Below are positions 11,391-29,533 of a DNA stretch of 32,000 bases, piece after piece. Both the position numbers and the translations under genes were made by a program. The DNA is from Promethearchaeum syntrophicum. Lineage in GTDB: Archaea > Asgardarchaeota > Lokiarchaeia > Sigyniarchaeales > Promethearchaeaceae. The first letter of the stretch is position 1, and each line of letters opens with the position of its first letter. The notes under the pieces are model-generated. The model worked only from the letters and a program-made list of their open reading frames with translations, was not told the origin of the DNA and did no database searches. The stretch spans positions 360,001-392,000 of the forward strand of contig NZ_CP042905.2 of assembly GCF_008000775.2 (NCBI RefSeq). The letters are read 5' to 3'.

Positions 11391-11711
11391 TTATTTCTTT
11401 GCTTTATCTAATTGCGCGCCCTTATTCAATCTAAGGTGCTCACGTCCTAAGAACATGGTTTTCATTTTATTTCCATCTTTGACATGCACTCCATAACAAC
11501 GTCCACGTTCTTCAAATACAACACCAGTTTTTCCATGAAATCTTCTGTGTGGGAAACCCCTCTTCTGAAAAGATGGATCCCCAATAATGTCGATTTTGTC
11601 GCCTACTTTGTAATCTATCATAAATTTGGAAAGGCCGGGTAATCCTCGCTTTCTCACATTCTTTCTAAATATTCGTCTAGTCTTTGATCTGTATCCATGA
11701 TGCTTGGTCAA
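11391..11711 (-). CDS. rpl21e: 50S ribosomal protein eL21 (L21e)
   Basis: HGYRSKTRRIFRK...GLPGLSKFMIDYKVGDKIDIIGDPS..KGFPHRRFHGKTGVV is canonical L21e. There is no in-frame ATG. TTG at 11711 gives MTKHHGYR and is preceded by GGTGG 7-8 nt upstream. The track's TTG at 11735 is the alternative. Confidence 0.9.
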   Translation of the reverse strand: MTKHHGYRSKTRRIFRKNVRKRGLPGLSKFMIDYKVGDKIDIIGDPSFQKRGFPHRRFHGKTGVVFEERGRCYGVHVKDGNKMKTMFLGREHLRLNKGAQLDKAKK

Positions 11712-11821
11712 TGTTTTTCCACCTATAAATAACAACTATATAACAAAGATAGTTTTTAATAAGATTTCTAATTATCCATTTAAAAAAAAATTTGTGATTT
11801 TTGTCAATTTCAACGATTTCT

Positions 11822-12928
11822 TTATTGAGGAATGAAAGACATTTCTTTTGTAATTTTTTGAATGACTGCAACTGTCAACTCAACTATCATATTAACATCA
11901 TTTAGATTGACGATTTCACTCATTGAATGCATATATCGGTTTGGAATGGCGATAACTCCTGTGGCAACTCCTGATCGTGATATTTGAATAGAGCGAGCAT
12001 CATTCCCGGTTGCTCTCGGAGTTGCGAGAATTTGGTATGGTATACCTAATTCCTTTGCAGTTTCTACAAAAAGATTGAATAAAATTGGATTAATGTTGGG
12101 ACCTCTTACAATTACAGGACCACCGCCCATCTTTACTATTCCAATATCACTTTCTTTCATATCTGGAGTATCTGTCGCGAAAGTGACATCATAGGCAATT
12201 CCAACTTGCGGATTCACAGAATAGGTAGATGTTATGGCTCCCCGTGTCCCTATTTCTTCTTGGGTTGTGGCTACAGCATGAACTTCGCCTTCAAATTTTG
12301 TTCCTTTCAAAGATTTAATAACTTCTGCTATTATAAAGGTTCCAATTTTATCGTCAAAACATCTTGAAACAACTAAATCCCCTTTTCCTAAAGGAGCGTA
12401 TGAGTGCTCAAAAATTATTGGATCACCGATTTCGATACCTAATTCTTTAACAGCTTCTTCACGAGATGTTGCTCCTATATCAATAAATTGTTGGTCCAGT
12501 TTTACGACATTTTTGCGTTCTTCGGGTTTTTGTAGGTGAATCGCTTTTTTTCCGATAACACCAAGGATTTTTCCTTTTGATCCAGTTAAAATACGCACCC
12601 TATTTCCTGGAGTTAGATGGGCGTCAACTCCCCCTAACATGTGAAATCGAATAAAACCTTTTTCATCTATATATTTAACTTGAAGGCCAACTTCATCTAC
12701 ATGCGCCATTAGCGCAATTCTTGGGTTACCTTCCAAGTTTAATACAGCATCTACATTTCCCATAACATCTGTTTTTATTTTATCCGCTATATCATTCAAA
12801 TATTCACGGTAAACAGATTGGGCTGGTTGTTCAAATCCAGTCGGACTTGGAGCATTAACCAATTTTTCTAAAAATTTCTCGTTAATAATTCTAGGCTTTT
12901 TTTCAATATTTTCAATTTTTTCAGACAT
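11822..12928 (-). CDS. M42-family (TET/FrvX-type) aminopeptidase
   Basis: LVNAPSPTGFEQ, metal ligands in LMAHVDEVG, CFDDKIG, TTQEEIGTRGA, and IPNRYMHS. Confidence 0.9.
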   Translation of the reverse strand: MSEKIENIEKKPRIINEKFLEKLVNAPSPTGFEQPAQSVYREYLNDIADKIKTDVMGNVDAVLNLEGNPRIALMAHVDEVGLQVKYIDEKGFIRFHMLGGVDAHLTPGNRVRILTGSKGKILGVIGKKAIHLQKPEERKNVVKLDQQFIDIGATSREEAVKELGIEIGDPIIFEHSYAPLGKGDLVVSRCFDDKIGTFIIAEVIKSLKGTKFEGEVHAVATTQEEIGTRGAITSTYSVNPQVGIAYDVTFATDTPDMKESDIGIVKMGGGPVIVRGPNINPILFNLFVETAKELGIPYQILATPRATGNDARSIQISRSGVATGVIAIPNRYMHSMSEIVNLNDVNMIVELTVAVIQKITKEMSFIPQ

Positions 12929-13018
12929 GTTTGATTAAGATTTCTTTAATATTTGTTTTTTTTTAATTTCAAAATTTCCATAATTTATCACATTTTGAAT
13001 GTAGGGTTTCATTAACAA

Positions 13019-13028
13019 ATATTTAAAT
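13019..13028 (+). promoter_or_regulatory. TATA-box-like element upstream of the GNAT gene
   Basis: tatttaaata is centred ~29 nt upstream of ATG 13053, which fits a leaderless start at that ATG. Confidence 0.3.
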
Positions 13029-13052
13029 ACAACTGTGTCAAAGTCTAAAACT

Positions 13053-13913
13053 ATGGAAAATTCCGACATATTGAGAAAAACCTCAAAAAATGAGATAATA
13101 AATGCTATTGATCAAAATTCTATAGATTTTTGGAAAACATTCTCCAATTTTTTAGATAAAGATGAAAGTTTAAAGAAAAATCCCAAATTTGAAATTTCTG
13201 TGAAGAAGGAAGTATCAAAAATTTTTACAGGAATGAATCATCCTATAGGAAATGCGTTTACTAGAGCAAATTTCACAGAGCAACAAGTATACGAAAAAGT
13301 AAGTATCTATCTAAATCTGGCTAAACAAAAAAATATACCTTTTATTTGGTGGGTAGGAGCCTTATCTAAGCCCCATAATTTAGGAGAAATTCTCGCGAAA
13401 ATAGGTTTGATTAAAGATGAATCCCCCGGTATGTATCTAAATTTAAGAGATATTGATGAAACAAAATATAAAGCTGCTTTAAATCGTTCTAAAATTAAAA
13501 TAGAACAAATTTTAAATCCTAAAGAAGAAAAATTCTGGTTAGATCTATGTTCTACAATATTTGAAATGGAAGAAGTTAAAGATGAAATTGATCGTATGTG
13601 GCGCGTATGTTTAAAATTCTGTGATGCATATTTAGCTACTTATGAGGGAAACCCAGTAGGAATTTCTATGGTTTTTTATGGAGGGGGAGTTGCTGGGATT
13701 TATAATGTTGGTGTTCATCCTGATTATCGAAATCGAGGGATAGGTACAGCAATAACTTTAGCACCAACAATTCAAGCTAAAAAAAAAGGTTATGAAATTA
13801 GTATTTTAATGTCTTCAGAAATAGGATTCAAAGTATATTCTCAAATAGGGTTTCAAGAATGTTGCAAATTTAATCAATATATATATATTCCACAACCAAA
13901 TGAAGAAAAATAA
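13053..13913 (+). CDS. GNAT-family N-acetyltransferase
   Basis: The acetyl-CoA motif VGVHPDYRNRGIGTAITLA lies in the C-terminal half. The ORF opens at GTG 13035, but ATG 13053 fits the TATA spacing. Confidence 0.75.
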   Translation: MENSDILRKTSKNEIINAIDQNSIDFWKTFSNFLDKDESLKKNPKFEISVKKEVSKIFTGMNHPIGNAFTRANFTEQQVYEKVSIYLNLAKQKNIPFIWWVGALSKPHNLGEILAKIGLIKDESPGMYLNLRDIDETKYKAALNRSKIKIEQILNPKEEKFWLDLCSTIFEMEEVKDEIDRMWRVCLKFCDAYLATYEGNPVGISMVFYGGGVAGIYNVGVHPDYRNRGIGTAITLAPTIQAKKKGYEISILMSSEIGFKVYSQIGFQECCKFNQYIYIPQPNEEK

Positions 13914-14050
13914 GTCTATTTTGTATGGTTAGCTTAGGAAATCTCGAATTTCAATGACGCATGGACACATATGGTCTCATATGATCTCATAGGAATTTTA
14001 TTATTTTTGTATAACTCCCTAAGCAATTAGGGTATTAGATCATGATTTGA
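13824..14050. repeat. diverged direct repeat, copy 1 (last ~90 nt of the GNAT gene plus ~135 nt of downstream non-coding DNA)
   Basis: It aligns without gaps over the coding part, and with one 2-nt indel over the non-coding part, to 14990..15215. By hand count identity is ~71% in the coding-derived part and ~84% in the non-coding part. Confidence 0.85.
13960..13994 (+). promoter_or_regulatory. phased CATGG/CATATG repeat cluster, copy 1, upstream of the transglutaminase-like gene
   Basis: catggacaCATATGGTCTCATATGATCTCATAGGA contains four CAT(A)(T)G(G/A) units at 8-10-nt spacing. It is the best conserved core of the 226-bp repeat. Confidence 0.35.
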
Positions 14051-14105
14051 ATCATTTTTCATTCGAAACATGCTAATATTGAATTAAATTATTTTTATAT
14101 ATCCT

Positions 14106-14933
14106 ATGAATTACTTTGAAGGGATAGAGAAAATGAAGAAAATACATTTGAATAAAAAGAACAAAATTCTGGCAGTGATTGTGGTTCTGCTAGTAGTAGG
14201 TCCTATAACTGTAATTCTTATGTTAATGAATAATTCTCCGAGTCAATCTTATAACGTAATTTCTCAAGATCTCGACTTAGATGAAATGAATAGTTATCCT
14301 CAAGAGATTATTAGAATTAATGAAAATTCTGCAGGTATAGATATAGATATTAAAGTGAAAATCGATAAAAATCGTTTAAAATCTGTTCCATTGGAAAATT
14401 ATACTTATAAGGATGAAATAGCTTATTTCCAAAATCCCTCAAGTAAAATCCAATCGAATTCATCAATAATTGCAGAATTGGCAGAAGAAATTATTGGTGA
14501 AGAACAAGATATCTTAACTATCGTACGTTTAGTTGCAAATTGGACTAGTTCCTCCATTTCATATGATGAATTACTGGCATCTCAAATTTGGAATGGACAA
14601 TCTCAAACGCAAGACGCCTTAACTACATTAGAACTTATGACTGGAACTTGTAGTGAATATGCAAATGTTTTTATCGCAGTTATGAGATATATAGGTGTTC
14701 CTACTCGATTTATTACGGGAAAGAGATTTGAAGGATCTTATCACGCATGGGCGGAAATATATTTATATGAAATAGGATGGATTCCAGTTGATCCCCAACA
14801 TAATGTTATAAATTATTGCTATGAATCAAATGATTTTGTTATTCTTACCTGTGTGAAGCTTTTCGCAGGCTTAGATTTTGTCGATATTGGGATAAAATTA
14901 GCTGATCTTGGAACTATTATAAAAAAGATCTAA
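14106..14933 (+). CDS. membrane-anchored transglutaminase-like (papain-fold Cys-His-Asp) protein
   Basis: N-terminal K-rich segment plus TM (KILAVIVVLLVVGPITVILMLM). Core TGTCSEYANVFIAVMRYIGVPTRFITG...SYHAWAEIYLYEIGWIPVDP is present. An alternative ATG at 14133 (MKKIHLNKK) is equally plausible. Confidence 0.8.
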   Translation: MNYFEGIEKMKKIHLNKKNKILAVIVVLLVVGPITVILMLMNNSPSQSYNVISQDLDLDEMNSYPQEIIRINENSAGIDIDIKVKIDKNRLKSVPLENYTYKDEIAYFQNPSSKIQSNSSIIAELAEEIIGEEQDILTIVRLVANWTSSSISYDELLASQIWNGQSQTQDALTTLELMTGTCSEYANVFIAVMRYIGVPTRFITGKRFEGSYHAWAEIYLYEIGWIPVDPQHNVINYCYESNDFVILTCVKLFAGLDFVDIGIKLADLGTIIKKI

Positions 14934-14989
14934 TAATTATTTCAGTTTCCTAACGTTTCTACATAATTTCTCAGTAATAACAAGCTTAT

Positions 14990-15080
14990 GGATTTATAGT
15001 TTATTCTCAAATTGGTCTTAAGGAATAATTCAAATTTGGACGATAATAACACATGCTATATCCAATTGAAGAAAATTTAG
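14990..15080 (+). pseudogene. remnant of the 3' end of a GNAT paralogue (homologous to 13824..13913)
   Basis: It translates to GFIVYSQIGLKE*FKFGR**HMLYPIEENL*, against GFKVYSQIGFQECCKFNQYIYIPQPNEEK* in the intact gene. The length is the same, the alignment is ungapped, and there are three internal stops. Confidence 0.75.
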
Positions 15081-15125
15081 TCTATTTTGTATGGTTTGCT
15101 TGAGAAATCTCGAAATTTAAAAACA

Positions 15126-15160
15126 CATGGATACATATGGTCCCATATGATCCCATAGGA
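15126..15160 (+). promoter_or_regulatory. phased CATGG/CATATG repeat cluster, copy 2, upstream of the NfeD-like/flotillin pair
   Basis: catggataCATATGGTCCCATATGATCCCATAGGA. Both decamer units carry the same T>C change relative to copy 1. Confidence 0.35.
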
Positions 15161-15270
15161 ATTTTTTTATTGCTGTAAAACTCCTTATTTAATTAGGGCA
15201 TAAGATCACGTGATTATAATCGAAAGTGGACTTTAGGATAATGTATCTTAACCTAAAACGGAGATATAGA

Positions 15271-16146
15271 ATGATCTGGCATGAAATAATATTTTCCTTA
15301 TGCGTAGGCGCTTTAATTTCAGGATTTATTCTAACACTAATACTTTCCATAATGGCTGCTTCCAACTTTTCCAATCAAGAAGCTGGAGATAATGATATTT
15401 CTGAAAATTTTGACGATACAGGGGAATATGGAACAGATGGTGCAGAAACTGACTTTGATGGGGATATCGACTCAGATATTGATGCGGGAGAAATTGATTT
15501 TGATCCTGATTCAGAAATGGATCTTGATTCAGATTTAGACTTTGAAGCAGATACTGAAGTAGAAGTGGAAACTGACCTTGATTCTGAAGTAGAAATTGAC
15601 GAAGATATTCAAATAGAGCCATCGATTGAAAGTGCACTCTCTACAAGTGAAAGTGATTTCATAAATTTTGAAAATCAAACTCCTATGTCATTGATTTTTT
15701 CTTTATATCTTCTATGGTTTGGAGTGATCGGGACTTCTACACATGATTTTTTCTCAAATTCATGGATGTGGCTCTGGTTGATCATAATTTTAATTTGTCC
15801 TGTAATTTTTGTTAAAATCGTTAGTAAATTCTGGAGAAAAATATCTAAAAACACCGCATATCGAGTGAGAGTTGGAAATCAATTATTAGGGCGTGAAGCA
15901 ATGGTAAAAATCCCTGTGTCTTCTGATGGAGGGACCGTATCTGTTAAATCTGCTGATGCTGTTCAACAAATTGGAGTGAAATCTCTACATGAATTATCTT
16001 GGTTCCATTCAGGAATGACTGTTTATATCTGTGAATACAAAGATGGAATGTATTTCGTTGATGATAATCCCGCAAGCGTGAAATTGAAAAAATCTCATCA
16101 TAGGATACAAAATAAGAAAATCAGAATTTCTACAATACAAAAATAA
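15271..16146 (+). CDS. NfeD/YqiJ-like membrane protein with ~80-aa acidic alternating tract and C-terminal OB-like domain
   Basis: One N-terminal TM (IIFSLCVGALISGFILTLILSIMAA), a D/E tract, two TMs, then LLGREAMVKIPVSSDGGTVSVKSADAVQQIGVKS...GMTVYICEYKDGMYFV, which resembles NfeD/YqiJ OB domains. It sits directly upstream of a flotillin, as yuaF-floT and yqiJ-yqiK do. ATG 15271 is preceded by GGAG 7 nt upstream; the ORF opens at GTG 15226. Confidence 0.65.
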   Translation: MIWHEIIFSLCVGALISGFILTLILSIMAASNFSNQEAGDNDISENFDDTGEYGTDGAETDFDGDIDSDIDAGEIDFDPDSEMDLDSDLDFEADTEVEVETDLDSEVEIDEDIQIEPSIESALSTSESDFINFENQTPMSLIFSLYLLWFGVIGTSTHDFFSNSWMWLWLIIILICPVIFVKIVSKFWRKISKNTAYRVRVGNQLLGREAMVKIPVSSDGGTVSVKSADAVQQIGVKSLHELSWFHSGMTVYICEYKDGMYFVDDNPASVKLKKSHHRIQNKKIRISTIQK

Positions 16147-16205
16147 AAAAAAACTTATATATTTCTAATAAAAAAAAAAAAAAAAAAAATAAAGAGAAAA
16201 AAAAA

Positions 16206-17441
16206 ATGATTTATGCTGAATTTAGTTTAGGGGTGGCAGGAATAGTTATTTTAATTGTCTTGTCTATTGTGTTGGTTGCAGTATTCTTTGCTAGCAGATA
16301 CAGAAAGTTCAAAACAAATGAATACGTTATTCATTTAAGGAATGGGAAGGTTGCTTCAGCCGGTAGGGGAGGTAAAATTATCAAATTACCTTTGATCGAT
16401 GAAATTGTAGTAATTCCGACAACCACCAGAAAAACTCTGTTGAATTCTTCAGATAAAATATTGTCTCGTGAATTTCAAGATGTAAAAATAAGCGCAATTC
16501 TTTATTGGCGTGTTTCAGAACCGGAAATATCATTTAATGCTGTTGTATGGGATCCAAGATCACCTGATTATGTTGAAAGGGTACTTAGTACAGCAACGGA
16601 GGCAATTATTCGTACAACTTGTGCTAGTTTAACCGTTGAAACCATTATTTGCGATCGAACTGAAATTATTAAAACAATTACAGATCAATTGTTAAACTTA
16701 ACAAAAGATTGGGGAATTGTAATAGAATCTTTAGAAATTATTGAAGTTCAGGTGCTAGACAAAGATTTGAAAGATAATATGGAAGCTGTTAAGAAGATTC
16801 AAGAACAACAACGCGCGCGTTTAGCCAATGCGGATGCGAAAGAACTGTATAGATTAAGAGAAATCGATGTTAGTCGGCAATCAGAATTAGCAGAAAAAGA
16901 AATGGCAATTCAAATTCAACAACAAGAATTAACTCGTGCTGAAATTGAAGCCGAAGCTTACAAAAAAGCAACTCTCATCAGAGCAGAAGCAGATGCAGAT
17001 GCTATCAAAATGAGAATTCTCGCTGAGAAGGAAGCTGAAGCTATTGGAATTCGTTTAAAAATGACTGCTGAGGCCGAAGGATTTCAAAAGCAAGTTGATG
17101 CAATAAATTCTGGTGATCAAAACTTCCTCACCATGAAATTAATCGAACAAATGCCCGAGATTTACAAAAATATTTCACCTGATAAAATGATTGTAATGGG
17201 AGAGGGAAATAAAGGGTTCAATTCTATTTTAGAAAGCATCCTTCCTTTAATGCAGATTCTCCCCGAATTCAATAAACAAATCAATGGTGTATCAAAAGAT
17301 TCTGTAGAGAAGATTAAAAGGGATAAAGATGTTACCGGTGTGGAATTTGAAGATTCGGAAATCGAAAACTTCCAAAAAATCATGCAGATAGAACAACCTA
17401 TTAAAAATAATAAGAGTAAGGGCATAAAGGTAAAAAAATAA
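16206..17441 (+). CDS. flotillin-like SPFH/Band-7 protein
   Basis: N-terminal TM hairpin (GVAGIVILIVLSIVLVAVFFA), SPFH domain, and an E/A-rich flotillin coiled coil (AEIEAEAYKKATLIRAEADADAIKMRILAEKEAEAIGIRLKMTAEAEGF). Confidence 0.9.
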   Translation: MIYAEFSLGVAGIVILIVLSIVLVAVFFASRYRKFKTNEYVIHLRNGKVASAGRGGKIIKLPLIDEIVVIPTTTRKTLLNSSDKILSREFQDVKISAILYWRVSEPEISFNAVVWDPRSPDYVERVLSTATEAIIRTTCASLTVETIICDRTEIIKTITDQLLNLTKDWGIVIESLEIIEVQVLDKDLKDNMEAVKKIQEQQRARLANADAKELYRLREIDVSRQSELAEKEMAIQIQQQELTRAEIEAEAYKKATLIRAEADADAIKMRILAEKEAEAIGIRLKMTAEAEGFQKQVDAINSGDQNFLTMKLIEQMPEIYKNISPDKMIVMGEGNKGFNSILESILPLMQILPEFNKQINGVSKDSVEKIKRDKDVTGVEFEDSEIENFQKIMQIEQPIKNNKSKGIKVKK

Positions 17442-17603
17442 GATGAAAAATAGTATATTATGCTATTATAAATATACAAGAGCATCTGAAGATTATGTTA
17501 CTAAAAGCTGAATTTATTTAAAATTCAAGGTTGGGAATTTGGTTCTACAATTTCAAATTCGGACCATAATCTGAAAGGGTTTCTTTTCCAGTTCAAATCC
17601 TTA

Positions 17604-17627
17604 TTTTTTATCGTTTTTTAGATTTTT
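17604..17627 (+). terminator. oligo-T tracts (T6, T6, T5), candidate archaeal terminator for the NfeD-flotillin unit
   Basis: ttattttttatcgttttttagattttt is the first T5+ run after the flotillin stop, ~160 nt downstream. This is weak evidence in AT-rich DNA. Confidence 0.3.
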
Positions 17628-17672
17628 CTTCCATTCTTTACAAAGAGTGAAGACCTTAGACAAAAAGATAGA

Positions 17673-17680
17673 TTTATTAA
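17673..17680 (+). promoter_or_regulatory. TATA-box-like element upstream of the giant ORF
   Basis: tttattaa lies ~31-38 nt upstream of ATG 17711. Confidence 0.25.
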
Positions 17681-17710
17681 GAAGTTGTTGAATATTTAAT
17701 AAGACTACTA

Positions 17711-20700
17711 ATGAATAATTCCCAAGAAGATAGCCAAAAATTTTTAAAAGTTACTAATCAATTAACAGATTTTGCCTTCATTTTAATTTTCATGATTGCA
17801 CTTCCCGGTATTATTGGAGTAATTGCTGGAGGAATTGCAATGTTATTTGTTGAAGAAGCATTTTTAATGGGAGAATTTTCACTTGGCACTTTCTTAGCTG
17901 GAATAACCTTTTCACTCCCAATTTTCTATTTACTCTTCTTAAAAACTCGCAAAAAGAAAATATGGTATGAAATCATTCCAATAAGTTATAATAAAGAACT
18001 CACAATTGGTATTTTAATCATTTATGTGCCAACTATTCTGACTTCCTTAATTTTTTATCTCTTCTCTTTAATGATGAATTATTCTAGTTTTGCATTCGAA
18101 TTTCAGTTTTTTATTCTCGCAATTCAGCCTTTAGAATCATTATTTTTCTGTAGATTTTTTAAAATCTTATTCCCAATAAGTGAATCTGTAAAAAAAACAG
18201 GGAATATTCCTGAAATATCAGCCAAACTCAATAAAGAATCTCTTCAAAAAGTAATTTTTAAAGAGTTTGTGATTAAAATAATTTTTGATATTATATGCTT
18301 AGTTTTATCCAATTCAATATTAATAATAATTCTAACAAATGTTATCGGGATTATCCTATATTTTACAACTAAAGATTTAATTTTTAAAGTAGGCAAATTA
18401 AAAACTCGTTTATCTGAATTTAAATTAATTCTAAATCTAAAATTCATTGGGTTTCTGTTAATAATTCAAAGTCTAATCCAGTTTTGGATATGCATATTTG
18501 AACCCAACTTAAATTTAGGTCTTTACATTATAATTACAGCCTTATTAACCATAAAAATATCATTTATCTTATTATATCAATACAGTAAACATCTTTTTAT
18601 AAATTTTCAAATTCGTGTGAAATGGTTTATTGGATTCATGATTAATGATATAATTACTATCGCGATTAATATTTTAGGTGTTATATATATCGTGGTTGAA
18701 GGTTTCAATGTTGAACCTTTTTGGGTATTTTCTGAGTGGTATTTATTAGGGATTTTTATTGTTTTTCTAATAGAAAATATTATTGAAAGACATTTTCATC
18801 TTTCATATAAATTACTTTCTACGTTATTCAACATGATTCAACTAATTGCAATTTATGCGATTATAGCTTTTCTATTAATTGATGTCGAATTATATCTCCA
18901 AATACTTATCTTCTCAGTATTATCAATTTCTATCCCAATAATTTTACATGAAATTAAAGCCATTTCAAAAAAAACTCAAATCATTATTCAAAATATCCTA
19001 TATATCCTAATTTTCTATGAAATTGGAATTTATTTTGCAGTTTTTACAACTGAAAATAATTTATTTATTACTGATTCTCAAATTTTCAATTACCTCTTCT
19101 TTTTATCTCTTAGCTCTCTAAGTTCGCTTTATCGGCTTTATTTTATAAAAATAAGAGGCTTTCAAACCAAATTTTTCTCACAATTAATTCTAATATTTCT
19201 ATTCATTAGCTTTTTTGGAATTTTTCAATTGATTGGAGGTGGCTTAATCGGAATTTCTGTTTTCCTTGTCGAATTTTTTGGAGATATTAATTCTACATTT
19301 CCAATATTTTTCCCAACTGGTTTACTCTCAAATTCATTAGAGAACATATCAAGTATATACAATCAAATTGGAGAAATCGCATTGGATTCGACATTTATTA
19401 TCAAATCAACAAACGGAATAGCAAGTGTATTGAATATTGCAGTTTCAGGTCTTCTATCCTTAGTAGGTTATAATATAATAATTCATTTGCATGAGAATTT
19501 TAAAGTTCTTTCCCCTTATGTTTTAAAATTTAATCAAATATTTAATCGCAGTCTGATTGGATTGTTAGCTTGTATAGGAATATTAGTAATGTTTCAGTCA
19601 ATTTCTGGAATAATTTTGTGTTTGATGTTCATTACTTACTTCAGTGTTTATATTTATGACTCGATTTATGAATTTAGGGAAGAAATACAAAAACCCTTGC
19701 GAAAATCAAAACTACAAGTAAAAAGTATTCTTTTTATCATAAACGCTATTGTGTCTTTGGCATTGTTTCTTTTCATAGGATTAGAATTCTTAGGTTTAGA
19801 TTTTACACTTTCATTTACAATTGCTTTAATTGCACTTTATCTTTATATTAACCTACTTCCTTCGATTAATTCGATTTTAAATCGCACATATAATGAGAAG
19901 AAGCTGTTAAATCTCTTAAATGCGTGCATTTTATTCCTAATTGGGATATTCTTAAATCCCTCAATTAATTTCTTGCTGTCTAGTTATATTAGTCCAGATC
20001 TTGAATTGGGAATCCTCAATTGGATATTAATTTCTGGTCTTTTTATATCACTCTTTTCGTTTTTATCTTTAAAACAGCTTAAATCAGGAAATTATGTTTT
20101 AGGAAAAATCTATGAAATTTCAAACATGCTATTACAATTTTTCTTTTGGTTTATGGCATCTGGATTTATTATATTTAACACATACAAAGTTCTTAATTAT
20201 CTCTTATTAATAATATCAATTAATTTACTTTTATTATCCGTTATATTTAAAATCAATAGTATATTAACTTTTAATAATATCTATCGTGAAGTATATTTAA
20301 CATGGATATACATGATGAGTATTACATGGGAATTAGGATTTGTTACTCTAATTTCGTCTTTTATTATTGCTTTTAATTATATTAATTTAGCTTTTCTTAT
20401 CTTCTTGGGATTACTAATATTAGGAATTTTAACTTACAGAAATATCAAGCAATATATCTCTATTTATCCTGCAAAAAAAGAACAGATTATAAAATTACTC
20501 GATTTTATACATTTGTTTAATCTAATTGTTACTATTGGAATTTTTCAAACTTTCTTTAGTTTTTTTTCTTCTTATCCCGTATTTTTACCACTCTCTTTCA
20601 TGTTAACATCAATTCTTACAAGTATAGTTTTTCATATATCAAAGATTGTTAAAAAATACCTTCCGGATAAAATCGCTATTATAATTGATGTTATATTATT

Positions 20701-23700
20701 ACTCACATTATCAACTTCTAGCATCATCTCAGTTCATTCGATATTTGAAAACTACCTTAATATTCAACTAATTTTTGATTACTCAATAATATTCTCTCTG
20801 GGAGTGGTTATAATTGGCCTAGCTACATTACTTTTAATTGCCTACTATTTAGAAAAGAGAAAAATAATCAATACTCTCACATGGAATTATATAAATTTTG
20901 TAATAATTCAATTGGAAATATTAATTAGCTTTTCGTTTATAATGTATTCCGAATTTGAATGGGTCATTAATAATTTAAATAGCGAATGGGATCAACTTTC
21001 AACTCCAATCACGTATTTAATTCTTGGAGGTATGATATTAGGGCTTTATCTTATATATAAATCATTTTTAAAGTTAAAATATTTAAATGAACATGCCAAG
21101 TTAACTTTACTACTCCTAATTCAAAAAAATTTTACCAGAATTATAGGAACTATAGTTATTTCAATATTTCCGATTATTTTCTTTAACTATGAATTAATAG
21201 GATTTTCAATAGCCTTCTTCTTGATTACTTTTGTATTAGTGTATAGTTTTAAGGAATTTCAAAATACATTTCCGGCTAATCAAAAATTAAATGTTTATTC
21301 GGATATAATCCTGATTTCTAATTTATTGTCAATTTTACTTTTAATTTATTCTATCAGCTCACATTTTATTGGATTGATAATTACTGAATCATTAATATTA
21401 TCCTTCATTACTTTTTGGATATTTCTCTACTTCCTTCCAATTCTTATAAAATATATCCCAGCAAGAATAAAACACGTGATTAATGCAATATTTATGCCTG
21501 TGTTTGCAGTATTAGTAAATATTTCTGTTTATTTGGAAATTTTGAAATTTGAGATTGATCTACTTCAAGATCATACTTTAATTTCAATTCTAATAGGATT
21601 AATACCTCTATTTGCTTCAATTTTATTCGCACTCAACCAATTACAAAAAGGAAAATACCTCAAAGATAAATTACATAAAAAAATTCATTTTCTATTTAAT
21701 ATGGGAATTTATTATGATTTATATGCAATCATAGTATCAGTGATGTTGATATATGTGATAGGATCAAGTAATCTAAATGTATACAGAATTTTATTTCATA
21801 CATCTTGGCCACTTTTGGGATTATTTTTTATTCTGAAGAGAATTGAAATGAAGAATTTTTATTCTGAGATTTCACATTTAAAACTAATTTTAAAGACCCA
21901 AATATTAATGTTTTGGGGGATTTCAACACTGGGTTTGCTCATAATTATAAATTATATATTTGTATTCAATCCTTTAGTCATTGCAATTACAATTTTTATT
22001 GAGACTTTTGTTTTATTTTATTCCATTCTATTATTTGATGAAATTTTGCCAAAATTACACAAATTCTTACTAATAATGAAGGAAATTTTGATTTATATTA
22101 ACCTAATTTCAATTTCATCCGTGATTTACTTTACTAGTAATGAACTATTAGGTTTAATTCCAACATTTTCATTTTTCATAGTGTTAATTATTGTTTCTGG
22201 ATTACTTTTCTCGATTCCTGTTTATAAAACAGGAACAATCCAAAAATCTCTTTATGAGATCATTTCGTTTCTTATTTTTAGTAGTTCAATTTTATTAGCA
22301 ATATCAATCAATCAAATGAATTTTCTTCCAGGAACATCTCCAACATATGCCTATTTTGGACTTCTTCTAATTCCTATTCTTGCCTCTTTTTTTAGCATCT
22401 TTCTCTTTAGTAAAAATACAATATCTAAAAGAATTGCTCGGAAGCTATATCAAAAAAATGAAATATTATTACTCATAAATGTCGCAATTCTAATTGCTTT
22501 ACTATCCAACGAAAATGGATTGAATAATTTTTCTCTGTTAATTTCTTCTTTAATTGTTACTGCTCTACTGGTTGTAGATTATTATACAATATTTCTTTTA
22601 ACAGATAAAAAAACTATTATCTTATCATTTTTCAGCGCATTATTATATAATTTAGTAGGAATTACCTTAGCCATTTCTTTACCTTTATTTGAAACCTTCG
22701 ATAACCCTATATTTATATTTATTCTTGTCCAATTGCCATTTCTGTTTGGAATATTTTATTTTGTGGATTGGGCAAACCGGAGAATTCAATCCGCTACAAA
22801 TTTGAAAGATTTGAACAAAAGACCATTTTCTAAATTATCAAACACTAAGAAAAATCATATTAATCAATCAGATGAACCTTTATTAATAGATAACAATGAA
22901 GAACCTTCTAATAATCCCTCCAAATTTGCCCCAACTACAATTATGAACCGGTTTGCACAATTTATTTCTGATAAATGGATAATCCTAGAAGTTTGTTTTA
23001 TATTTATTACACTCGGTCTAAATCTTTATTTAGGCATCAATATACTTTTAATTTCAGAAGAAATATTTACTCCCCTTCAAATCTTGCTAATTTGTTCTTT
23101 GATTGTTTCAGTTATTACCATATATCAACCTCATTCTCACAAGTTTTTAATTTATTACATTCAAACTCTTGTAACCCTTGGATTAAATTATATAATTTAT
23201 GACTCAACCTTATTCATTAGTGAGTTTCAGATACTTTTCGGTATAATTGCCGCAATTTTAATAAACAGATTGGCTACCAGACATTTTCCTATTAATAATC
23301 TTATTAAATACATTCAAAATTTCCTACTCTTAGGAATTTACTATTTCATTATTCATATCTATGGGTTTACTTTATCTTGGGAATTATTGATTAGCTGTAT
23401 TCTTTTCAGTATTTTTACCAGCCGATCTTATAAAAACTTAACCTTTAATTCATTCAAAGTTTGGGCTTTTTCCTATTTTACTTATGATATTTTAATCAAC
23501 TATTTATCTCAAACAGAATATCCCTTAATCCCTATTTTTGCAGCTTGTGCGATCGGTTTAACTTGGCAATGGATAGTGTTTTTAAAAGATTCTAAATGGT
23601 CAAACTCAATCATAAAATCGTTATTGGGATATATTGTAACAATTTCATGGATTTTCAATTATGCATATTTATTTATCATTAAAAATGAAATAATGGGATT

Positions 23701-26700
23701 AATTTCACCCCCAATTATGGCATTTGTAGTATTATTGTTGCTATTTTTAAAGAAAAAGATCATTATATTCCAGAAAGAAAAATTTTTAGATATTTTAATC
23801 TTAGGAGGTACATTTTTCTTTATCTATACTCTTGGACGTTATTATTTATTCGAAAACTACTACTTTTCTGTTGCATTGGCTTTAACCTTAGCTGGTGCAA
23901 TTTGTGGGTTCTTATTTATATTCATATTAGAATTTTTAAATGCGAAAATAAGAAAAGAACTATCCTTGGCTTTCTTTACTTGTGCTTCTTTATTAGCGGG
24001 AGTATTCACATTCCTAATTTTAATGGAACCTGTTATTTTTACTGAAACTGCTTGGGAAGTTGCTTTACCTATTGGATTTGACATAGCTCTCTTATTGTTT
24101 TATATTGGCATTGGGATATACAAACGTTCCTTTACAAAAATTTGGTCTGTTGGAGTATATGCTTGGATTCTTGCTCCTATTATTAATTTTATAATGATAT
24201 CACGTTTAATACGAGGAATTGATTCTGTTTCATCCGCTTTAGAAGTGTTCAATGTTTCTATTGATGGATCAATTATTCTATCCATAATAATCTGTACACT
24301 AATGTACTTGCCTATAATAATTACAAGATTATTGGAAAATTTAAATAAAATAATCTATATTTTCTGGCTAGAATTACTCGTATTTACTACTTGGGGGGCT
24401 GTAAATCTATTTCCACAAAGTATTCTTTTACAAATCCCATTCATATTTCTAATTGGATTAATATTATTTGTTCCCATATTTTATTACTATAAGCATTGGG
24501 CTTCTTTAAGTCTTATTTGGCCTTTAATTGCGGCTACTAATATAGCATTTGTCCTTAATTTTGTTGCTTTTCAACCAGAGTGGGAGATACCAATAGGAAT
24601 TTTAATCGGTGGTTTCTATATTTTGACTTTAGGATATTTCCCGAATATAAAGAAATCTAAATTAGCTAGTTCGTTAATTATTATTTTTGGGTATTTCACA
24701 ATTTTAACTAGCATTTTCTGGTTATTATATACATTTGTTATTATCATTTTTGACGATATAATTATTTCTGTGAATATTACTCTCATCGTAATATCTTTTG
24801 TTTTACTTACTGGAAAATACTTTAAACTGCGTGATTATTTAATAAAAATAGGGCACTCACTAATAGTAATTATAAATCTAGCAATTTTACTAGCAAGAAC
24901 ATTTTATATAATAGGAAATCATGAATACAAAACTTTTGGAATTTTCCTTGGAATCGCATTTGCTTTTGGAACAACTCTATCATTTCAAGCCCGGAAATAT
25001 TTACCCAAAATATTATTTGAATTAATCTGGTTTGGAATGGCAATATTCTTTGGGTTATCATTATTTGAATTGGGGTTAACAATTTTTGATATAGGGGGTT
25101 GGGCTTCTACAGGAATTTTAGTAATAGTAGCAACTTTGATTTACTTCCCAATAATAAGATCTTATTTAGGGTCCGTTTTTGTTTTACTTGTTAGTGGCAT
25201 CTCAATGGTTATAATGGAACTACTGATTTTAGCTTCTCCATTCGTATCTATGAATCAACCTTTATTGTTCTTGGATGTTCTATTTACATTGGAATTAACT
25301 TATATCTATTTTAGCAGTAAATCAAAAATTGGGTTACTTAAAGATAAAACTACGAATTTTGAAATAGCTTCTATTATTTGGGTTATTTTATCTACATTAT
25401 TTTCTATAACTTTCATTTTTATGATAAATATATATTTCCCAGAAGAAATTTTTTCAAAAATTTTAATCTTCTTAAACACTTTCGCACTACAGAATCTATT
25501 AACAACCTATTCCATAAGACGAAATGAGCTCTTTACACGATATAGAATCATTCAAAAAATCATTCCAATTTTCCACTTCTTACTGATATTTACAATTTAT
25601 CTTTCCACTTCAATATTTTGTGCAATTAAAATACCAGTTAATAGCATAATTGAAATATCCGAACAAAATTTTGCTATTGAAACTTTATATCGTTTTGCAA
25701 TTCTGTTCTTAATTCTATTTATCGAATTTTATGGAATTGATCGTAAAATTGTAAAATTAGTATCAAATAAAATTCGTTATCAATTAGATTGGATAAGTTT
25801 CTTCGCTTTTTCTGCATGTTTAACATTTGGGCTCTTTTTAAACATACATATATGGGAGGTCTCCTTATTAATTTGGTGTATTTTATTTTTTATCACTATA
25901 TTTCTCAATCAAAAAGCAGGTAATAAGATATTTCCTGAAATTCTTAAAATTGTAAATGTACTGTTAATAAATACTGCCATATTTAGTTATATTTGGAAAA
26001 TAAATAATATAACTGATAGCATCAGTAATTTTGAATTTGATTTGCTCTTATTAAATATCGCATTTAATATTGCACTAATATATCTTTTTATGAGATTGAA
26101 AATAATCAATCGAAAAGCGATTAAAGTCATTTTCTCGATTTTATCAATTACAATTGCATTATTTTGTGAGGAAATATCCAGAATTTATTTAATGAAACAT
26201 TTGATTCTTAATATTGCCGTATTCTTTTTCGTCTTTGCAATATTGAACACTTTTAACATAAAACGTGCAATATTAATTTATTTCTATTGGATTTTATTAG
26301 CATTCTCAATCTCCACCTTTTTGATGGAATTCATTCCATTTTTATACCATATGACAACCATTAATTATATTATTACCCTTTCGTTTATATTCGGTTTGCA
26401 ATTATCACTTTTATTCTATCTATTAGCAAATTCCTCCCCAAATTCCAACCTTGAGAATAATGATAAAAAAATTGGTATTTCCATAGTTCATCCAATATTG
26501 GATTCTTCTGAAATTGCTCACAAGATTTTTGTAACTTGGATGATTATTGAAGCATTCATTGTTTCAATTTCTATTGCTCAATTTTGGAATTATTTATTTA
26601 TTGATCTAATGTTTTCACATAAAGATTTTACAGGAGTAGAAAAATTTTTCTTATGGATTTCTATTATCCCGATTATTTTTGCATTCATGTTTTACCATTT

Positions 26701-29533
26701 AAATAAGTATATGCAAAAAAATGAAGTTTGGAAAGATAAAAATTATGTTTTTATTGGAAATTCTGAATTAGGAATAGTTTTTAAAGCCTTATCTGTAATT
26801 TTTCTCAATTTATCTTTATTTTATCATCTTTGGTATGTATTTGATATATATTCAAGCTTAATCATTGCAGAATTTGGACCAATTCTTCTTAATTTGACAT
26901 TAAATCTATTTATTCTTTATAGTTTTATTAGAAAAAACCAATTTTCAAGAAAATGGCAATTTTTAACTTCAATTGCTCTATCGGTTGCTGTTTCTGGAGT
27001 GATTGAAGAATATTTAAGAGTTTTTTCAAATATTAGCCCATTAATGAGTGTTGCAATAATTTTATCCATTATATGTATTTTAAACACAAATAAAATTAAT
27101 ATCACATCTTTAGTCTATAGCTATTGGACAACTATTTCTTTCTGTTTGGCTATTTTCTTATATTCCTTAACAGATTGGATGTGGGGAGGGTTTGGATTAT
27201 CATTCTCATCAGTATTATGGTTTAGTTTCTTATTTGGATTATTTAATACTCTTATATATTATCTTCTAGCACATAGAACTTTAATCAAATTGGAATTCTT
27301 TCAAAAATATTCTCCATATCTTAGAATAATTGAAGGTTTCGATTATGAAATCAAATCAATTGATAATGATGTAGATAAAAAAGATAGTCTCATTTCAAAG
27401 GATAAGCCAAGAACTAAATCAAAATCTGCGTTTTTACTTCTATTTGGACATGAAGATCAAATACAAGCAAAGCAAATTTTCTCAATTTGGTTATTTATTG
27501 AGCTAATAATTTTAAGTTTCTCCCTTGCACAAGGATGGGCTTTCGTTTATAATAATAATATCCTATATAATGTCATATCTGATGATAATTTCATTCAATA
27601 TTTAATTCAAGCTACATTAGTTATTCTCTTATTATCAATTGGATTGGCTATAATTTTCCAATATATTAGATCAAATAATTTATGGGTTGAAAATAAGGAA
27701 TTTAACAAGAACCTAATTTTTGCCTCGAATTTTAATGGAATTTGCTTATATTTTTCTCTCCCCCTTGCTAGTACGTTCTATATACATTATACATTGATGA
27801 ATTTATTTGGAAATACTCTTGTAATTGCATTGATCGATATTTTTGCCTTTACAATATTAGCTTTTATTTGTATTTATTTGATTGATATTAAGAAAACTAA
27901 AATAATCAAGGAGAAACTTGCAAATTCATTAACAATTGGAATAATAATTTTGCTTTCTGCAGACATAAGTTTTATATGGAGTTATTTCACCGAATTAATT
28001 CCAATAGGAATAATAATTTTTGTTTGTATTCCTTATGTATTTAAATTTTTAAACTTAGTCAAAGAAGATATTCTTGGAAAACTTCTTTTTATTTCCAATT
28101 TACTCATTTCAATAGCAATTATGGTTCAAATTGATATATTTTTATTTGGTGTATTTGATTGGATGATTGCGCTTGGATTATTATTCCTAGTTCTCCAAAT
28201 TTTTATTGAATTAGAAATTCGATTAAAATTTTTATCTCCTATTGAAAAATTAATTAAATTTCTAAGAAAAATTTCATGGTTCCTCTTATCTATATGTGTG
28301 AGTTCCTTAACTATATTTTATAATATAGAAGATTTTACAATAATTCGTTTAATTATTGGGATTTTAATTCTTACTTTAATGATGTTTTACGAGAATTATC
28401 TATTATTTAGTGAAGAGAAAATGCAATTAAAATATTCCAAAATAAAAGATATTCTAGGAATGTTTTGTTATATTGAGATCTTCTCACTTCTTTCTACAAT
28501 CATAATTCCACTCAATCTTGCTGTTGAAATAACTGAAACGAAACCAATTTTATTTATGAGGTTACTACTAGTAACAGAACTTTTCGTAATTATATTTATT
28601 CTTTGTCTAATTGATAAGATAAAACTACATTTCATTCCTGATAAGGTTATAAAACCCTTGGATTTAACCTTATTCTTAACTACGATAATTTTAGGAGCAG
28701 TTGACCTCACTTATTTTGCTGTCCTAAATATTGATTTATCTCCTTCAACTACTCCTGGTCCTGGAATTCCTATAGAACAAAAAATGATTCCACTTATATT
28801 CGTTTCTATAATTATTGGAATAGTTCTAATTATTAAATTTAAAAATCGCAAGATTAATCAAATTATTTATTTTGTTCTACTAATTGAGATATTTATATAC
28901 ATTTTGGGTCTCAATCAACCATTAATTCTTATCCCAACAACAATCATTGCGCTTTTACTTTATCCTTTCATATTCTTCCTAGAACAAATGGTCATCCTAT
29001 TGAAATTAATAGGAAAATGGATACTGAATTTAATGATTAAAATTAAAAATTTCTTTAGTTTCTTGTGGAATAAAATTGTTTCTTTTTATTATAAACACAA
29101 AAGATTAGTATTTAGCGTACTGGGTTTAATCCTTGCTGCTGTAAGTTTTATTGTTATTTTAAATTTAGCGATTGAACAAATATCGTTCGCAATTAACGGA
29201 TTTATAAGTGGATTAATCTTTTTGATAGTATATTATCCAGTCTCGCCAGAAAGAGAAGAAGATACTAAACCAAGAAATTTCGCATTAAAGATATTATATA
29301 GAACTTTAATAATGATTTGTTTAGTTGGGTCATCGAGTGCACTGATTCCCTCTGAAGCATGGATTTATACATTGTTTCTCTTAGCATTCTTTGGATATGT
29401 TATTTGGGTAGTTCGACGCAGCGAAGAACTTTATAATCTTCCTATATATTGGCGATTTATGAGTTCATTAGGGGCTATCATTGATTTTATTGTAACTGCA
29501 ATATTATTGATACTCTATTTAGATATAATTTAA
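17711..29533 (+). CDS. giant polytopic integral membrane protein (3,940 aa), no recognisable domain
   Basis: Single uninterrupted 11,823-nt ORF in AT-rich DNA. No other-frame ORF across the span exceeds 80 aa. The sequence is nearly continuous 18-28-residue I/L/F-rich stretches separated by short K/R/N-rich loops. The longest hydrophilic loops are only ~60-70 aa. Confidence 0.9.
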   Translation: MNNSQEDSQKFLKVTNQLTDFAFILIFMIALPGIIGVIAGGIAMLFVEEAFLMGEFSLGTFLAGITFSLPIFYLLFLKTRKKKIWYEIIPISYNKELTIGILIIYVPTILTSLIFYLFSLMMNYSSFAFEFQFFILAIQPLESLFFCRFFKILFPISESVKKTGNIPEISAKLNKESLQKVIFKEFVIKIIFDIICLVLSNSILIIILTNVIGIILYFTTKDLIFKVGKLKTRLSEFKLILNLKFIGFLLIIQSLIQFWICIFEPNLNLGLYIIITALLTIKISFILLYQYSKHLFINFQIRVKWFIGFMINDIITIAINILGVIYIVVEGFNVEPFWVFSEWYLLGIFIVFLIENIIERHFHLSYKLLSTLFNMIQLIAIYAIIAFLLIDVELYLQILIFSVLSISIPIILHEIKAISKKTQIIIQNILYILIFYEIGIYFAVFTTENNLFITDSQIFNYLFFLSLSSLSSLYRLYFIKIRGFQTKFFSQLILIFLFISFFGIFQLIGGGLIGISVFLVEFFGDINSTFPIFFPTGLLSNSLENISSIYNQIGEIALDSTFIIKSTNGIASVLNIAVSGLLSLVGYNIIIHLHENFKVLSPYVLKFNQIFNRSLIGLLACIGILVMFQSISGIILCLMFITYFSVYIYDSIYEFREEIQKPLRKSKLQVKSILFIINAIVSLALFLFIGLEFLGLDFTLSFTIALIALYLYINLLPSINSILNRTYNEKKLLNLLNACILFLIGIFLNPSINFLLSSYISPDLELGILNWILISGLFISLFSFLSLKQLKSGNYVLGKIYEISNMLLQFFFWFMASGFIIFNTYKVLNYLLLIISINLLLLSVIFKINSILTFNNIYREVYLTWIYMMSITWELGFVTLISSFIIAFNYINLAFLIFLGLLILGILTYRNIKQYISIYPAKKEQIIKLLDFIHLFNLIVTIGIFQTFFSFFSSYPVFLPLSFMLTSILTSIVFHISKIVKKYLPDKIAIIIDVILLLTLSTSSIISVHSIFENYLNIQLIFDYSIIFSLGVVIIGLATLLLIAYYLEKRKIINTLTWNYINFVIIQLEILISFSFIMYSEFEWVINNLNSEWDQLSTPITYLILGGMILGLYLIYKSFLKLKYLNEHAKLTLLLLIQKNFTRIIGTIVISIFPIIFFNYELIGFSIAFFLITFVLVYSFKEFQNTFPANQKLNVYSDIILISNLLSILLLIYSISSHFIGLIITESLILSFITFWIFLYFLPILIKYIPARIKHVINAIFMPVFAVLVNISVYLEILKFEIDLLQDHTLISILIGLIPLFASILFALNQLQKGKYLKDKLHKKIHFLFNMGIYYDLYAIIVSVMLIYVIGSSNLNVYRILFHTSWPLLGLFFILKRIEMKNFYSEISHLKLILKTQILMFWGISTLGLLIIINYIFVFNPLVIAITIFIETFVLFYSILLFDEILPKLHKFLLIMKEILIYINLISISSVIYFTSNELLGLIPTFSFFIVLIIVSGLLFSIPVYKTGTIQKSLYEIISFLIFSSSILLAISINQMNFLPGTSPTYAYFGLLLIPILASFFSIFLFSKNTISKRIARKLYQKNEILLLINVAILIALLSNENGLNNFSLLISSLIVTALLVVDYYTIFLLTDKKTIILSFFSALLYNLVGITLAISLPLFETFDNPIFIFILVQLPFLFGIFYFVDWANRRIQSATNLKDLNKRPFSKLSNTKKNHINQSDEPLLIDNNEEPSNNPSKFAPTTIMNRFAQFISDKWIILEVCFIFITLGLNLYLGINILLISEEIFTPLQILLICSLIVSVITIYQPHSHKFLIYYIQTLVTLGLNYIIYDSTLFISEFQILFGIIAAILINRLATRHFPINNLIKYIQNFLLLGIYYFIIHIYGFTLSWELLISCILFSIFTSRSYKNLTFNSFKVWAFSYFTYDILINYLSQTEYPLIPIFAACAIGLTWQWIVFLKDSKWSNSIIKSLLGYIVTISWIFNYAYLFIIKNEIMGLISPPIMAFVVLLLLFLKKKIIIFQKEKFLDILILGGTFFFIYTLGRYYLFENYYFSVALALTLAGAICGFLFIFILEFLNAKIRKELSLAFFTCASLLAGVFTFLILMEPVIFTETAWEVALPIGFDIALLLFYIGIGIYKRSFTKIWSVGVYAWILAPIINFIMISRLIRGIDSVSSALEVFNVSIDGSIILSIIICTLMYLPIIITRLLENLNKIIYIFWLELLVFTTWGAVNLFPQSILLQIPFIFLIGLILFVPIFYYYKHWASLSLIWPLIAATNIAFVLNFVAFQPEWEIPIGILIGGFYILTLGYFPNIKKSKLASSLIIIFGYFTILTSIFWLLYTFVIIIFDDIIISVNITLIVISFVLLTGKYFKLRDYLIKIGHSLIVIINLAILLARTFYIIGNHEYKTFGIFLGIAFAFGTTLSFQARKYLPKILFELIWFGMAIFFGLSLFELGLTIFDIGGWASTGILVIVATLIYFPIIRSYLGSVFVLLVSGISMVIMELLILASPFVSMNQPLLFLDVLFTLELTYIYFSSKSKIGLLKDKTTNFEIASIIWVILSTLFSITFIFMINIYFPEEIFSKILIFLNTFALQNLLTTYSIRRNELFTRYRIIQKIIPIFHFLLIFTIYLSTSIFCAIKIPVNSIIEISEQNFAIETLYRFAILFLILFIEFYGIDRKIVKLVSNKIRYQLDWISFFAFSACLTFGLFLNIHIWEVSLLIWCILFFITIFLNQKAGNKIFPEILKIVNVLLINTAIFSYIWKINNITDSISNFEFDLLLLNIAFNIALIYLFMRLKIINRKAIKVIFSILSITIALFCEEISRIYLMKHLILNIAVFFFVFAILNTFNIKRAILIYFYWILLAFSISTFLMEFIPFLYHMTTINYIITLSFIFGLQLSLLFYLLANSSPNSNLENNDKKIGISIVHPILDSSEIAHKIFVTWMIIEAFIVSISIAQFWNYLFIDLMFSHKDFTGVEKFFLWISIIPIIFAFMFYHLNKYMQKNEVWKDKNYVFIGNSELGIVFKALSVIFLNLSLFYHLWYVFDIYSSLIIAEFGPILLNLTLNLFILYSFIRKNQFSRKWQFLTSIALSVAVSGVIEEYLRVFSNISPLMSVAIILSIICILNTNKINITSLVYSYWTTISFCLAIFLYSLTDWMWGGFGLSFSSVLWFSFLFGLFNTLIYYLLAHRTLIKLEFFQKYSPYLRIIEGFDYEIKSIDNDVDKKDSLISKDKPRTKSKSAFLLLFGHEDQIQAKQIFSIWLFIELIILSFSLAQGWAFVYNNNILYNVISDDNFIQYLIQATLVILLLSIGLAIIFQYIRSNNLWVENKEFNKNLIFASNFNGICLYFSLPLASTFYIHYTLMNLFGNTLVIALIDIFAFTILAFICIYLIDIKKTKIIKEKLANSLTIGIIILLSADISFIWSYFTELIPIGIIIFVCIPYVFKFLNLVKEDILGKLLFISNLLISIAIMVQIDIFLFGVFDWMIALGLLFLVLQIFIELEIRLKFLSPIEKLIKFLRKISWFLLSICVSSLTIFYNIEDFTIIRLIIGILILTLMMFYENYLLFSEEKMQLKYSKIKDILGMFCYIEIFSLLSTIIIPLNLAVEITETKPILFMRLLLVTELFVIIFILCLIDKIKLHFIPDKVIKPLDLTLFLTTIILGAVDLTYFAVLNIDLSPSTTPGPGIPIEQKMIPLIFVSIIIGIVLIIKFKNRKINQIIYFVLLIEIFIYILGLNQPLILIPTTIIALLLYPFIFFLEQMVILLKLIGKWILNLMIKIKNFFSFLWNKIVSFYYKHKRLVFSVLGLILAAVSFIVILNLAIEQISFAINGFISGLIFLIVYYPVSPEREEDTKPRNFALKILYRTLIMICLVGSSSALIPSEAWIYTLFLLAFFGYVIWVVRRSEELYNLPIYWRFMSSLGAIIDFIVTAILLILYLDII
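26240..28060 (+). repeat. protein-level tandem module duplication inside the giant ORF (module A 26240-27076, module B 27077-~28060)
   Basis: The two modules align by eye: ILNTFNIKRAILIYFYW/ILNTNKINITSLVYSYW; LLFYLLA/LIYYLLA; AHKIFVTWMIIEAFIVSISIAQFW/AKQIFSIWLFIELIILSFSLAQGW; KNEVWKDKNYVF/NNLWVENKEFNK; LLNLTLNLFILYSFIRKNQFSRKWQ/LIDIFAFTILAFICIYLIDIKKTKIIKEK. Module B carries a longer hydrophilic loop. The DNA is too diverged to see a repeat. Confidence 0.7.

Follow-up and report, generated by a model that had tools for sequence, protein, structure and literature searches.

Closest described systems

Duplication of helix bundles is familiar in membrane proteins. Transporters of the MFS (6 + 6 helices) and RND (2 × 6 helices) families show in-frame duplication of several helices at once, by which membrane topology is kept. 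In the Piezo mechanosensitive channels of eukaryotes, which are trimers with a central pore, four-helix repeat units form a curved blade, and the repeated arms are less conserved than the central functional module. Each Piezo subunit has 38 transmembrane domains arranged in repetitive helical units (PMC10969519). Here we describe an open reading frame (ORF) of 3,940 codons in a 32,000-nucleotide stretch of the genome of the archaeon Promethearchaeum syntrophicum (contig NZ_CP042905.2, positions 360,001 to 392,000; hereafter the window). Its product, the giant protein, carries duplication of this kind in an open-ended form and at approximately 2.5 times the helix count of Piezo.

The giant protein resembles Piezo in its very large size, its polytopic nature, and a membrane part that consists of serially repeated helix units, as well as in having repeated arms that are less conserved than its central module. 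It differs in showing no sequence or fold similarity to Piezo (Pfam, PDB sequence, and Foldseek searches), in the size of its units (approximately eight helices versus four), in the number of helices per chain (approximately 100 versus 38), in a unit number that varies between close relatives, in the lack of soluble cap or beam domains, and in its archaeal host. With the MFS and RND transporters it has in common the in-frame duplication of a multi-helix bundle that preserves topology. Theirs, however, is a single, fixed duplication giving one pseudo-symmetric unit, whereas the giant protein has open-ended arrays of variable copy number and no homology to any transporter family in Pfam, NCBIfam, or PDB sequences. 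Our analysis indicates that it is probably a nearly all-membrane protein of approximately 100 helices with old in-frame tandem units that are gained and lost as wholes, in which the arrays may act as expandable arms around a core.

An old in-frame tandem duplication in the giant protein

The protein is encoded by the following feature of the window.

17711 to 29533, plus strand: giant ORF, 3,940 codons, approximately 100 hydrophobic helix-like peaks, almost no soluble loops

A simple 19-residue hydropathy scan gives approximately 102 helix-like peaks over the 3,940 residues and only six polar stretches of at least a dozen residues. Intact ORFs homologous to this one are present in many genomes.

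An earlier note on this DNA had proposed that nucleotides 26240 to 28060, which correspond to residues 2844 to 3450, encode a tandem pair of multi-helix modules, module A (residues 2844 to 3122) and module B (residues 3123 to 3430). Their similarity is real, since the Smith-Waterman score of A against B, 154, lies above that of shuffled sequences, both for global shuffles (55 ± 9; z 10.5) and for shuffles within 10-residue windows, which preserve the hydropathy profile (64 ± 13; z 6.9). The register of the pair had to be moved, as shown below, to residues 2737 to 3015 and 3016 to 3333.

Composition is a serious trap in this protein, because the reversed sequence matches the forward one with an E value of 1e-37 when no composition correction is applied. 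BLAST of the full-length protein against itself showed nothing beyond the diagonal, and searches with fragments, with composition correction and reversed-fragment controls, were used instead. Residues 2737 to 2963 then match residues 3016 to 3280 with 76.6 bits (E value of 5e-19, 26% identity over 265 columns), and the best of all reversed-fragment controls reaches 28.9 bits. The same pair was recovered in five of five close orthologues (59 to 72% identity). When slices of the orthologue alignment were compared with hhalign, the pair scored 155 to 207, the highest value being that of residues 2737 to 2962 against 3016 to 3279, and the reversed targets reached a maximum of 28 to 33. The N-side array described below likewise scores above composition-matched controls.

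As the earlier note had stated, the window ORF contains no repeat at the DNA level; identity between the modules amounts to 20% when they are aligned globally and 26% in the local alignment, lower than the quarter to a third that had been estimated by eye. Its view of the duplication as old and kept in frame is borne out by the absence of a DNA repeat and by copies that are orthologous across relatives. Residues 2737 to 3333 represent a genuine and old tandem duplication, in frame, of a unit of approximately 280 to 317 residues.

One could argue that the similarity arises from hydrophobic, low-complexity composition without any true duplication, given that Ile, Leu, and Phe make up 44% of the protein and that its uncorrected reversed sequence gives so extreme an E value. 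Against this, the corrected pair exceeds the reversed controls by far (76.6 versus 28.9 bits), the z value of 6.9 holds even against local shuffles that retain the hydropathy profile, profile scores range from 95 to 207 with controls at or below 33, polar motifs align between the copies, and copies in Candidatus Lokiarchaeum ossiferum are up to 56% identical. The controls refute this explanation, and we give it practically no chance of being correct.

Exactly two units abut head to tail in the C-side array

To set the register, the region was cut at a natural break within a lysine-rich loop, between module positions 172 and 173, and the parts were compared as profiles built from the six close orthologues only. 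This split test gave the following hhalign scores.

Residues 2737 to 2843 against 3016 to 3122: 72.5 over all 107 columns, reversed control 18.3
Residues 2844 to 3011 against 3123 to 3329: 95.4, reversed control 20.9
Residues 3016 to 3122 against 3333 to 3438: 9.1, reversed control 11.7
Residues 2737 to 2843 against 3333 to 3438: 14.8, reversed control 12.4
Residues 2545 to 2736 against the start of A: 18.1, reversed control 13.2
Residues 2545 to 2736 against the start of B: 15.0, reversed control 14.7

The segment just upstream of module A had been thought to match the ends of both modules. It does match the end of A (pairwise z of 13.2), but not the end of B (z of -0.2), and the last block aligned in the earlier note, the end of A with the end of B, carries no signal of its own (z of 1.1). 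Similarity within U1 stops at approximately residue 3011 to 3015 and U2 begins at residue 3016, leaving a junction free of spacer. The demonstrable C-side copies therefore number exactly two, U1 (residues 2737 to 3015) and U2 (residues 3016 to 3333), abutting head to tail, in place of the 2.3 consecutive copies first proposed. The supposed third partial copy upstream of A turned out to be the first 107 residues of U1. The region is organized as follows.

25343 to 25918, plus strand: segment 5′ of U1 (residues 2545 to 2736), which resembles the start of the module in register but only marginally and is therefore left out of the copy count
25919 to 26755, plus strand: C-side unit U1 (residues 2737 to 3015), made of the supposed partial upstream copy (residues 2737 to 2843) and the first two thirds of module A
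26756 to 27709, plus strand: C-side unit U2 (residues 3016 to 3333), made of the last third of A and the first two thirds of B, abutting U1
27332 to 27427, plus strand: charged insert in U2 (residues 3208 to 3239), in the variable loop between module helices 2 and 3, predicted to be cytoplasmic
27710 to 28024, plus strand: last approximately 105 residues of module B (residues 3334 to 3438), whose position matches the end of A and whose homology to it is not demonstrable; read as post-array flank

Two other maps of the region were set aside. A hidden Markov model (HMM) of the module, built from 9 or 19 copies, pointed to two complete copies followed by a C-terminal third, which was dropped after the split test. 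A full third copy at residues 2545 to 2843 is unproven and was rejected: the 19-copy profile aligns with that stretch across the whole module (132.8), nearly all of the score comes from residues 2737 to 2843, and the N-part alone (residues 2545 to 2736) is marginal, with 25.6 against controls of 13 to 21 and with 18.1 against 13.2 in the split test.

Outside the tandem-unit scheme, some 60 residues upstream of the C-side array (residues 2633 to 2693; nucleotides 25607 to 25789) resemble residues 3591 to 3651 (nucleotides 28481 to 28663), approximately 250 residues downstream of it. The hhalign score is 31.4 against a control of 9.4 with the close orthologues, and 47 to 49 with ten sequences.

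A second array lies on the N side

Comparison of slices of a ten-sequence alignment with the whole alignment revealed a separate repeat with a period of approximately 260 residues, spanning residues 653 to 1622. Its units are the following.

19667 to 20446, plus strand: R1 (residues 653 to 912); a profile of R2 and R3 matches residues 653 to 888 with a score of 70 (control 22.5), and residues 652 to 909 score 58 against 1177 to 1437
20447 to 21250, plus strand: R2 (residues 913 to 1180); residues 913 to 1170 score 83 against 1181 to 1429 (highest reversed control 32.8)
21251 to 22027, plus strand: R3 (residues 1181 to 1439); residues 1047 to 1272 score 89 against 1311 to 1532, and single-sequence BLAST gives 31.6 bits
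22028 to 22576, plus strand: detectable part of R4 (residues 1440 to 1622); the R2 and R3 profile scores 56.8 (control 22.5)

Several further N-side pairs are spaced by one period or by two, and no reversed control in the scan exceeded 32.8. The units adjoin at residues 912/913, 1180/1181, and 1439/1440 without a spacer, and each has seven or eight hydropathy peaks. No homology between the R and U units was detected (17.8 with the R2 and R3 profile). Taken together, the two arrays cover approximately 1,570 of the 3,940 residues, so that some 40% of the protein is demonstrably repeat.

A turn motif, K-Y-[LI]-P-x-[KR]-I, occupies the same position in R2 and R3 (nucleotides 20654 to 20674 and 21449 to 21469; residues 982 to 988 and 1247 to 1253). 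It also occurs at residue 3640, giving three matches in the protein where 0.2 would be expected in shuffled sequences.

Unit number changes among homologues

Searching the rest of the protein and its homologues with the module HMM, one of the checks that the earlier note had suggested, showed variable U counts. There is one copy in a short paralog of L. ossiferum, two in the genus of the window and in P0008 and P0013, and five in a 4,905-residue L. ossiferum protein. The latter is collinear with the window protein, and nearly all of its approximately 965 extra residues lie in the repeat zone. Its inner copies are 55 to 56% identical with a period of 299 to 300 residues, and the DNA still shows the repeat (66% identity over 1,123 nucleotides at an offset of 897 nucleotides). 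These copies form a clade in trees of both the N-part (support of 100/100) and the C-part (93/99), which places their origin within that lineage.

The short L. ossiferum paralog, of 3,151 residues, contains a single U unit and lacks approximately 528 residues on the N side, equivalent to two units, and approximately 318 on the C side, equivalent to one. Two relatives of 3,491 and 3,496 residues have two U units and one N-side unit fewer. Thus, unit number changes among homologues in whole units. The two L. ossiferum paralogs, located approximately 240 kilobases apart (L016, positions 3312 to 12764, and L021, positions 6001 to 20718, for the 3,151- and 4,905-residue proteins, respectively), owe most of their difference to entire repeat units; in most other genomes the protein has a single copy.

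In the lineage of the window, the two halves of the pair form separate orthologous sets with relatives whose cores are 57 to 88% identical. The U1 C-part clusters with its counterparts from P0002, P0006, and P0013 (support of 89/84), and the C-parts of A form a clade (97/99). Since each half is orthologous among the relatives, the duplication in the window predates their splits. Gain and loss of units would occur by unequal recombination between neighboring copies. The suggestion of the earlier note that the size of the protein arose by serial module amplification is supported and can be extended, as whole-unit differences, a second array, and arrays of the homologues' own have come to light. 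The evidence thus supports repeated amplification of such blocks as an explanation for much of the protein size in the family.

The unit is predicted to cross the membrane eight times

An AlphaFold2 model of module A, computed from an alignment of nine paralogous and orthologous copies, shows eight long helices (mean predicted local distance difference test [pLDDT] score of 70.8; predicted template-modeling score of 0.59). Over 19 copies, the mean numbers of Lys plus Arg per loop are 1.5, 5.8, 2.2, and 0.8 in alternate loops and 0.3, 0.3, 0.5, and 0.0 in the others, an alternation consistent with eight passes and two cytoplasmic ends. The U register likewise begins and ends in predicted cytoplasmic loops and would thus also comprise eight passes. 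This moderate-confidence model leads us to infer that the unit has an even number of membrane passes, probably eight. Adding or removing an eight-helix unit with both ends in the cytoplasm would leave the topology downstream unchanged, which may be why whole-unit changes are tolerated.

The expanded charged loop that had been noticed in module B is real (residues 3208 to 3239) and sits in the most variable loop of the unit. No internal 4 + 4 symmetry of the unit was detected with hhalign (17.1). Few residues are invariant: N3, W17, and Y157 are conserved in all nine copies, and short G-H-P, H-L-W-Y, and E-E-x-x-R motifs recur. A Foldseek search of the PDB with the unit model gave no match (best E value of 1.1, template-modeling score below 0.3).

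A conserved core defines a family with recurrent arrays

Conservation is highest in residues 2101 to 2520 and at both termini, and it is lowest in the two arrays. The chain thus consists of conserved N-terminal, central (residues 2101 to 2560), and C-terminal parts split by two fast-evolving zones of tandem units. Two features outside the arrays are relevant here.

24011 to 25390, plus strand: conserved core (residues 2101 to 2560), the best conserved part, found throughout the order
22802 to 22927, plus strand: hydrophilic linker after the N-side array (residues 1698 to 1739), one of only a few extended polar segments

With a profile of the core (alignment A3), matches were obtained in 113 of the 153 other genomes belonging to the order of the window, usually one in each; by family, matches were found in 11 of 13, 1 of 1, 98 of 135, and 2 of 4 genomes. 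No credible match was obtained in the other 246 Asgard genomes searched. The C-side unit is detectable in the family of the window only. Approximately a dozen clusters of homologues were found in 5.8 billion database sequences, and a scan of genome contigs returned only close relatives. Among 1.84 billion representative proteins, the unit profile found seven representatives only, all of them members of the giant-protein family or fragments thereof, and the unit was never found as a stand-alone protein. No description of such a protein was found in the literature searched. As judged from these searches, the family appears to be uncharacterized, mostly single-copy, and confined to one Lokiarchaeial order. 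Its order-wide and mostly single-copy distribution argues for an important membrane function.

The open frames around the core range from approximately 2,500 to 4,920 residues. Helix-like peaks number 68 to 88 in the eight distant homologues retrieved, and the three of these tested contained no Pfam domain. Five of the eight have tandem arrays of their own on one or both sides of the core, with periods of approximately 121, 134, 180, 250, and 260 residues and identities of 33 to 70%. These arrays are younger than those of the window and independent of them. The presence of arrays in the two zones flanking the core in distant homologues shows that tandem amplification of helix blocks is recurrent in the family. 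The C-side units of the distant homologues are related to one another (scores of up to 83.6). A link between the distant arrays and the window units was rejected, as it is marginal at best (32.4 to the window's unit versus 16.7).

The younger arrays are found in L038 (genome G193; ORF residues 2452 to 2677 against 2702 to 2927), L035, L041, L039, and L036, with up to 70% identity. Such arrays would provide better material than the window for studying the mechanism of amplification.

Role of the arrays

Searches of Pfam, NCBIfam, and PDB sequences with the window protein gave no match (Pfam threshold, E value of 0.01 or lower), and Foldseek searches of the PDB with models of the unit and the core gave nothing below an E value of 0.98. 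The conserved core and termini, the fast-evolving arrays of variable unit number, and the scarcity of invariant residues favor a structural role of the arrays. By analogy with the Piezo channels, whose blades consist of repeated helix bundles, and more tentatively than the repeat structure itself, they may be non-catalytic, expandable arms or spacers within the membrane that determine, around the core, how large the protein is in the membrane plane or what shape it takes.

A different possibility is that each eight-helix unit works as a transporter- or enzyme-like domain, the protein being a concatenated multi-transporter in which duplication multiplies the activity or diversifies its substrates. 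Eight-helix bundles of approximately 280 residues have the size of many small transporters, and the three residues invariant in nine copies (N3, W17, and Y157), together with the recurring G-H-P, H-L-W-Y, and E-E-x-x-R motifs, could be read as traces of such an activity. However, neither the protein, in Pfam, NCBIfam, and PDB sequences, nor the unit model, in fold comparisons, has a match. The unit profile finds members of the giant family only among 1.84 billion proteins and never a stand-alone unit, conservation along the protein is lowest in the arrays, and the number and length of units vary freely among relatives. We therefore consider a multi-transporter improbable.

That same freedom of period and copy number, the fast sequence evolution of the arrays, and the lack of a detectable relation between N-side and C-side units would suit near-neutral ballast, i.e., segments with an even number of helices that duplicate by slippage during replication or recombination and persist without function as they leave the topology undisturbed. 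Yet the pair in the window, although its genome is AT-rich, has kept its integrity and reading frame over a time long enough to erase all similarity between the copies at the DNA level; relatives retain each copy as an orthologous set; and in distant lineages, too, the arrays are located in the two zones on either side of the core. The ballast explanation thus has only a small chance of being right, and arrays that serve as expandable arms around a conserved core remain our preferred reading.

Several points weigh against that reading. Some 60% of the giant protein has no detectable repeat, and a helix count taken from hydropathy is crude. Neither of the structure models matched a solved fold, and the model of the core is poor (pLDDT of 63), so that the arm-and-core picture is drawn from conservation patterns only. 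In the N-part tree, deeper relations among the units are not separated (support of 50/69). The 100/99 split in the whole-module tree resulted from C-parts for which homology could not be demonstrated, and the proposal, based on that split, that A and B separated before the divergence of Lokiarchaeum was withdrawn.

Long cell protrusions are seen in the cultured members of Lokiarchaeales, an Asgard group, and the order of the giant protein includes cultured archaeal relatives of eukaryotes. It is conceivable, if rather unlikely, that the family forms the largest known single-chain intramembrane assemblies (approximately 70 to more than 100 helices), with arrays that would act as adjustable arms shaping or stiffening the membrane in Lokiarchaeales, an independently evolved prokaryotic counterpart of a membrane-bending architecture like that of Piezo. 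The conserved core, the two arrays with defined unit boundaries, and natural variants with one, two, or five units provide a map for structural and genetic work.

Gene neighborhood

The giant ORF is surrounded by archaeal housekeeping genes (DUF655, M42 peptidase, KsgA, SufBD, and ribonucleotide reductase), and a gene for an SPFH protein lies directly upstream. Neighborhoods of the homologues vary by genus: L. ossiferum has a his operon there, and the genes close to P0013 and P0014 are unrelated. Gene neighborhood was therefore rejected as a clue to function, the SPFH/flotillin neighbor being kept in close relatives only.

At positions 15226 to 17441 of the window, 5′ of the giant ORF, a gene for a 306-residue membrane protein is paired with the SPFH/flotillin-like gene. 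The pair is absent beside the homologues of L. ossiferum, P0013, and P0014 and thus does not represent a conserved operon; it is kept in a relative with 59% identity (L022, positions 477 to 2712). At the edge of the window (positions 3 to 791), a truncated ORF encodes a helicase C-terminal AAA_12 domain and a REase_MTES_1575 nuclease domain, and a gene similar to it is found near a homologue of the giant protein in L027.

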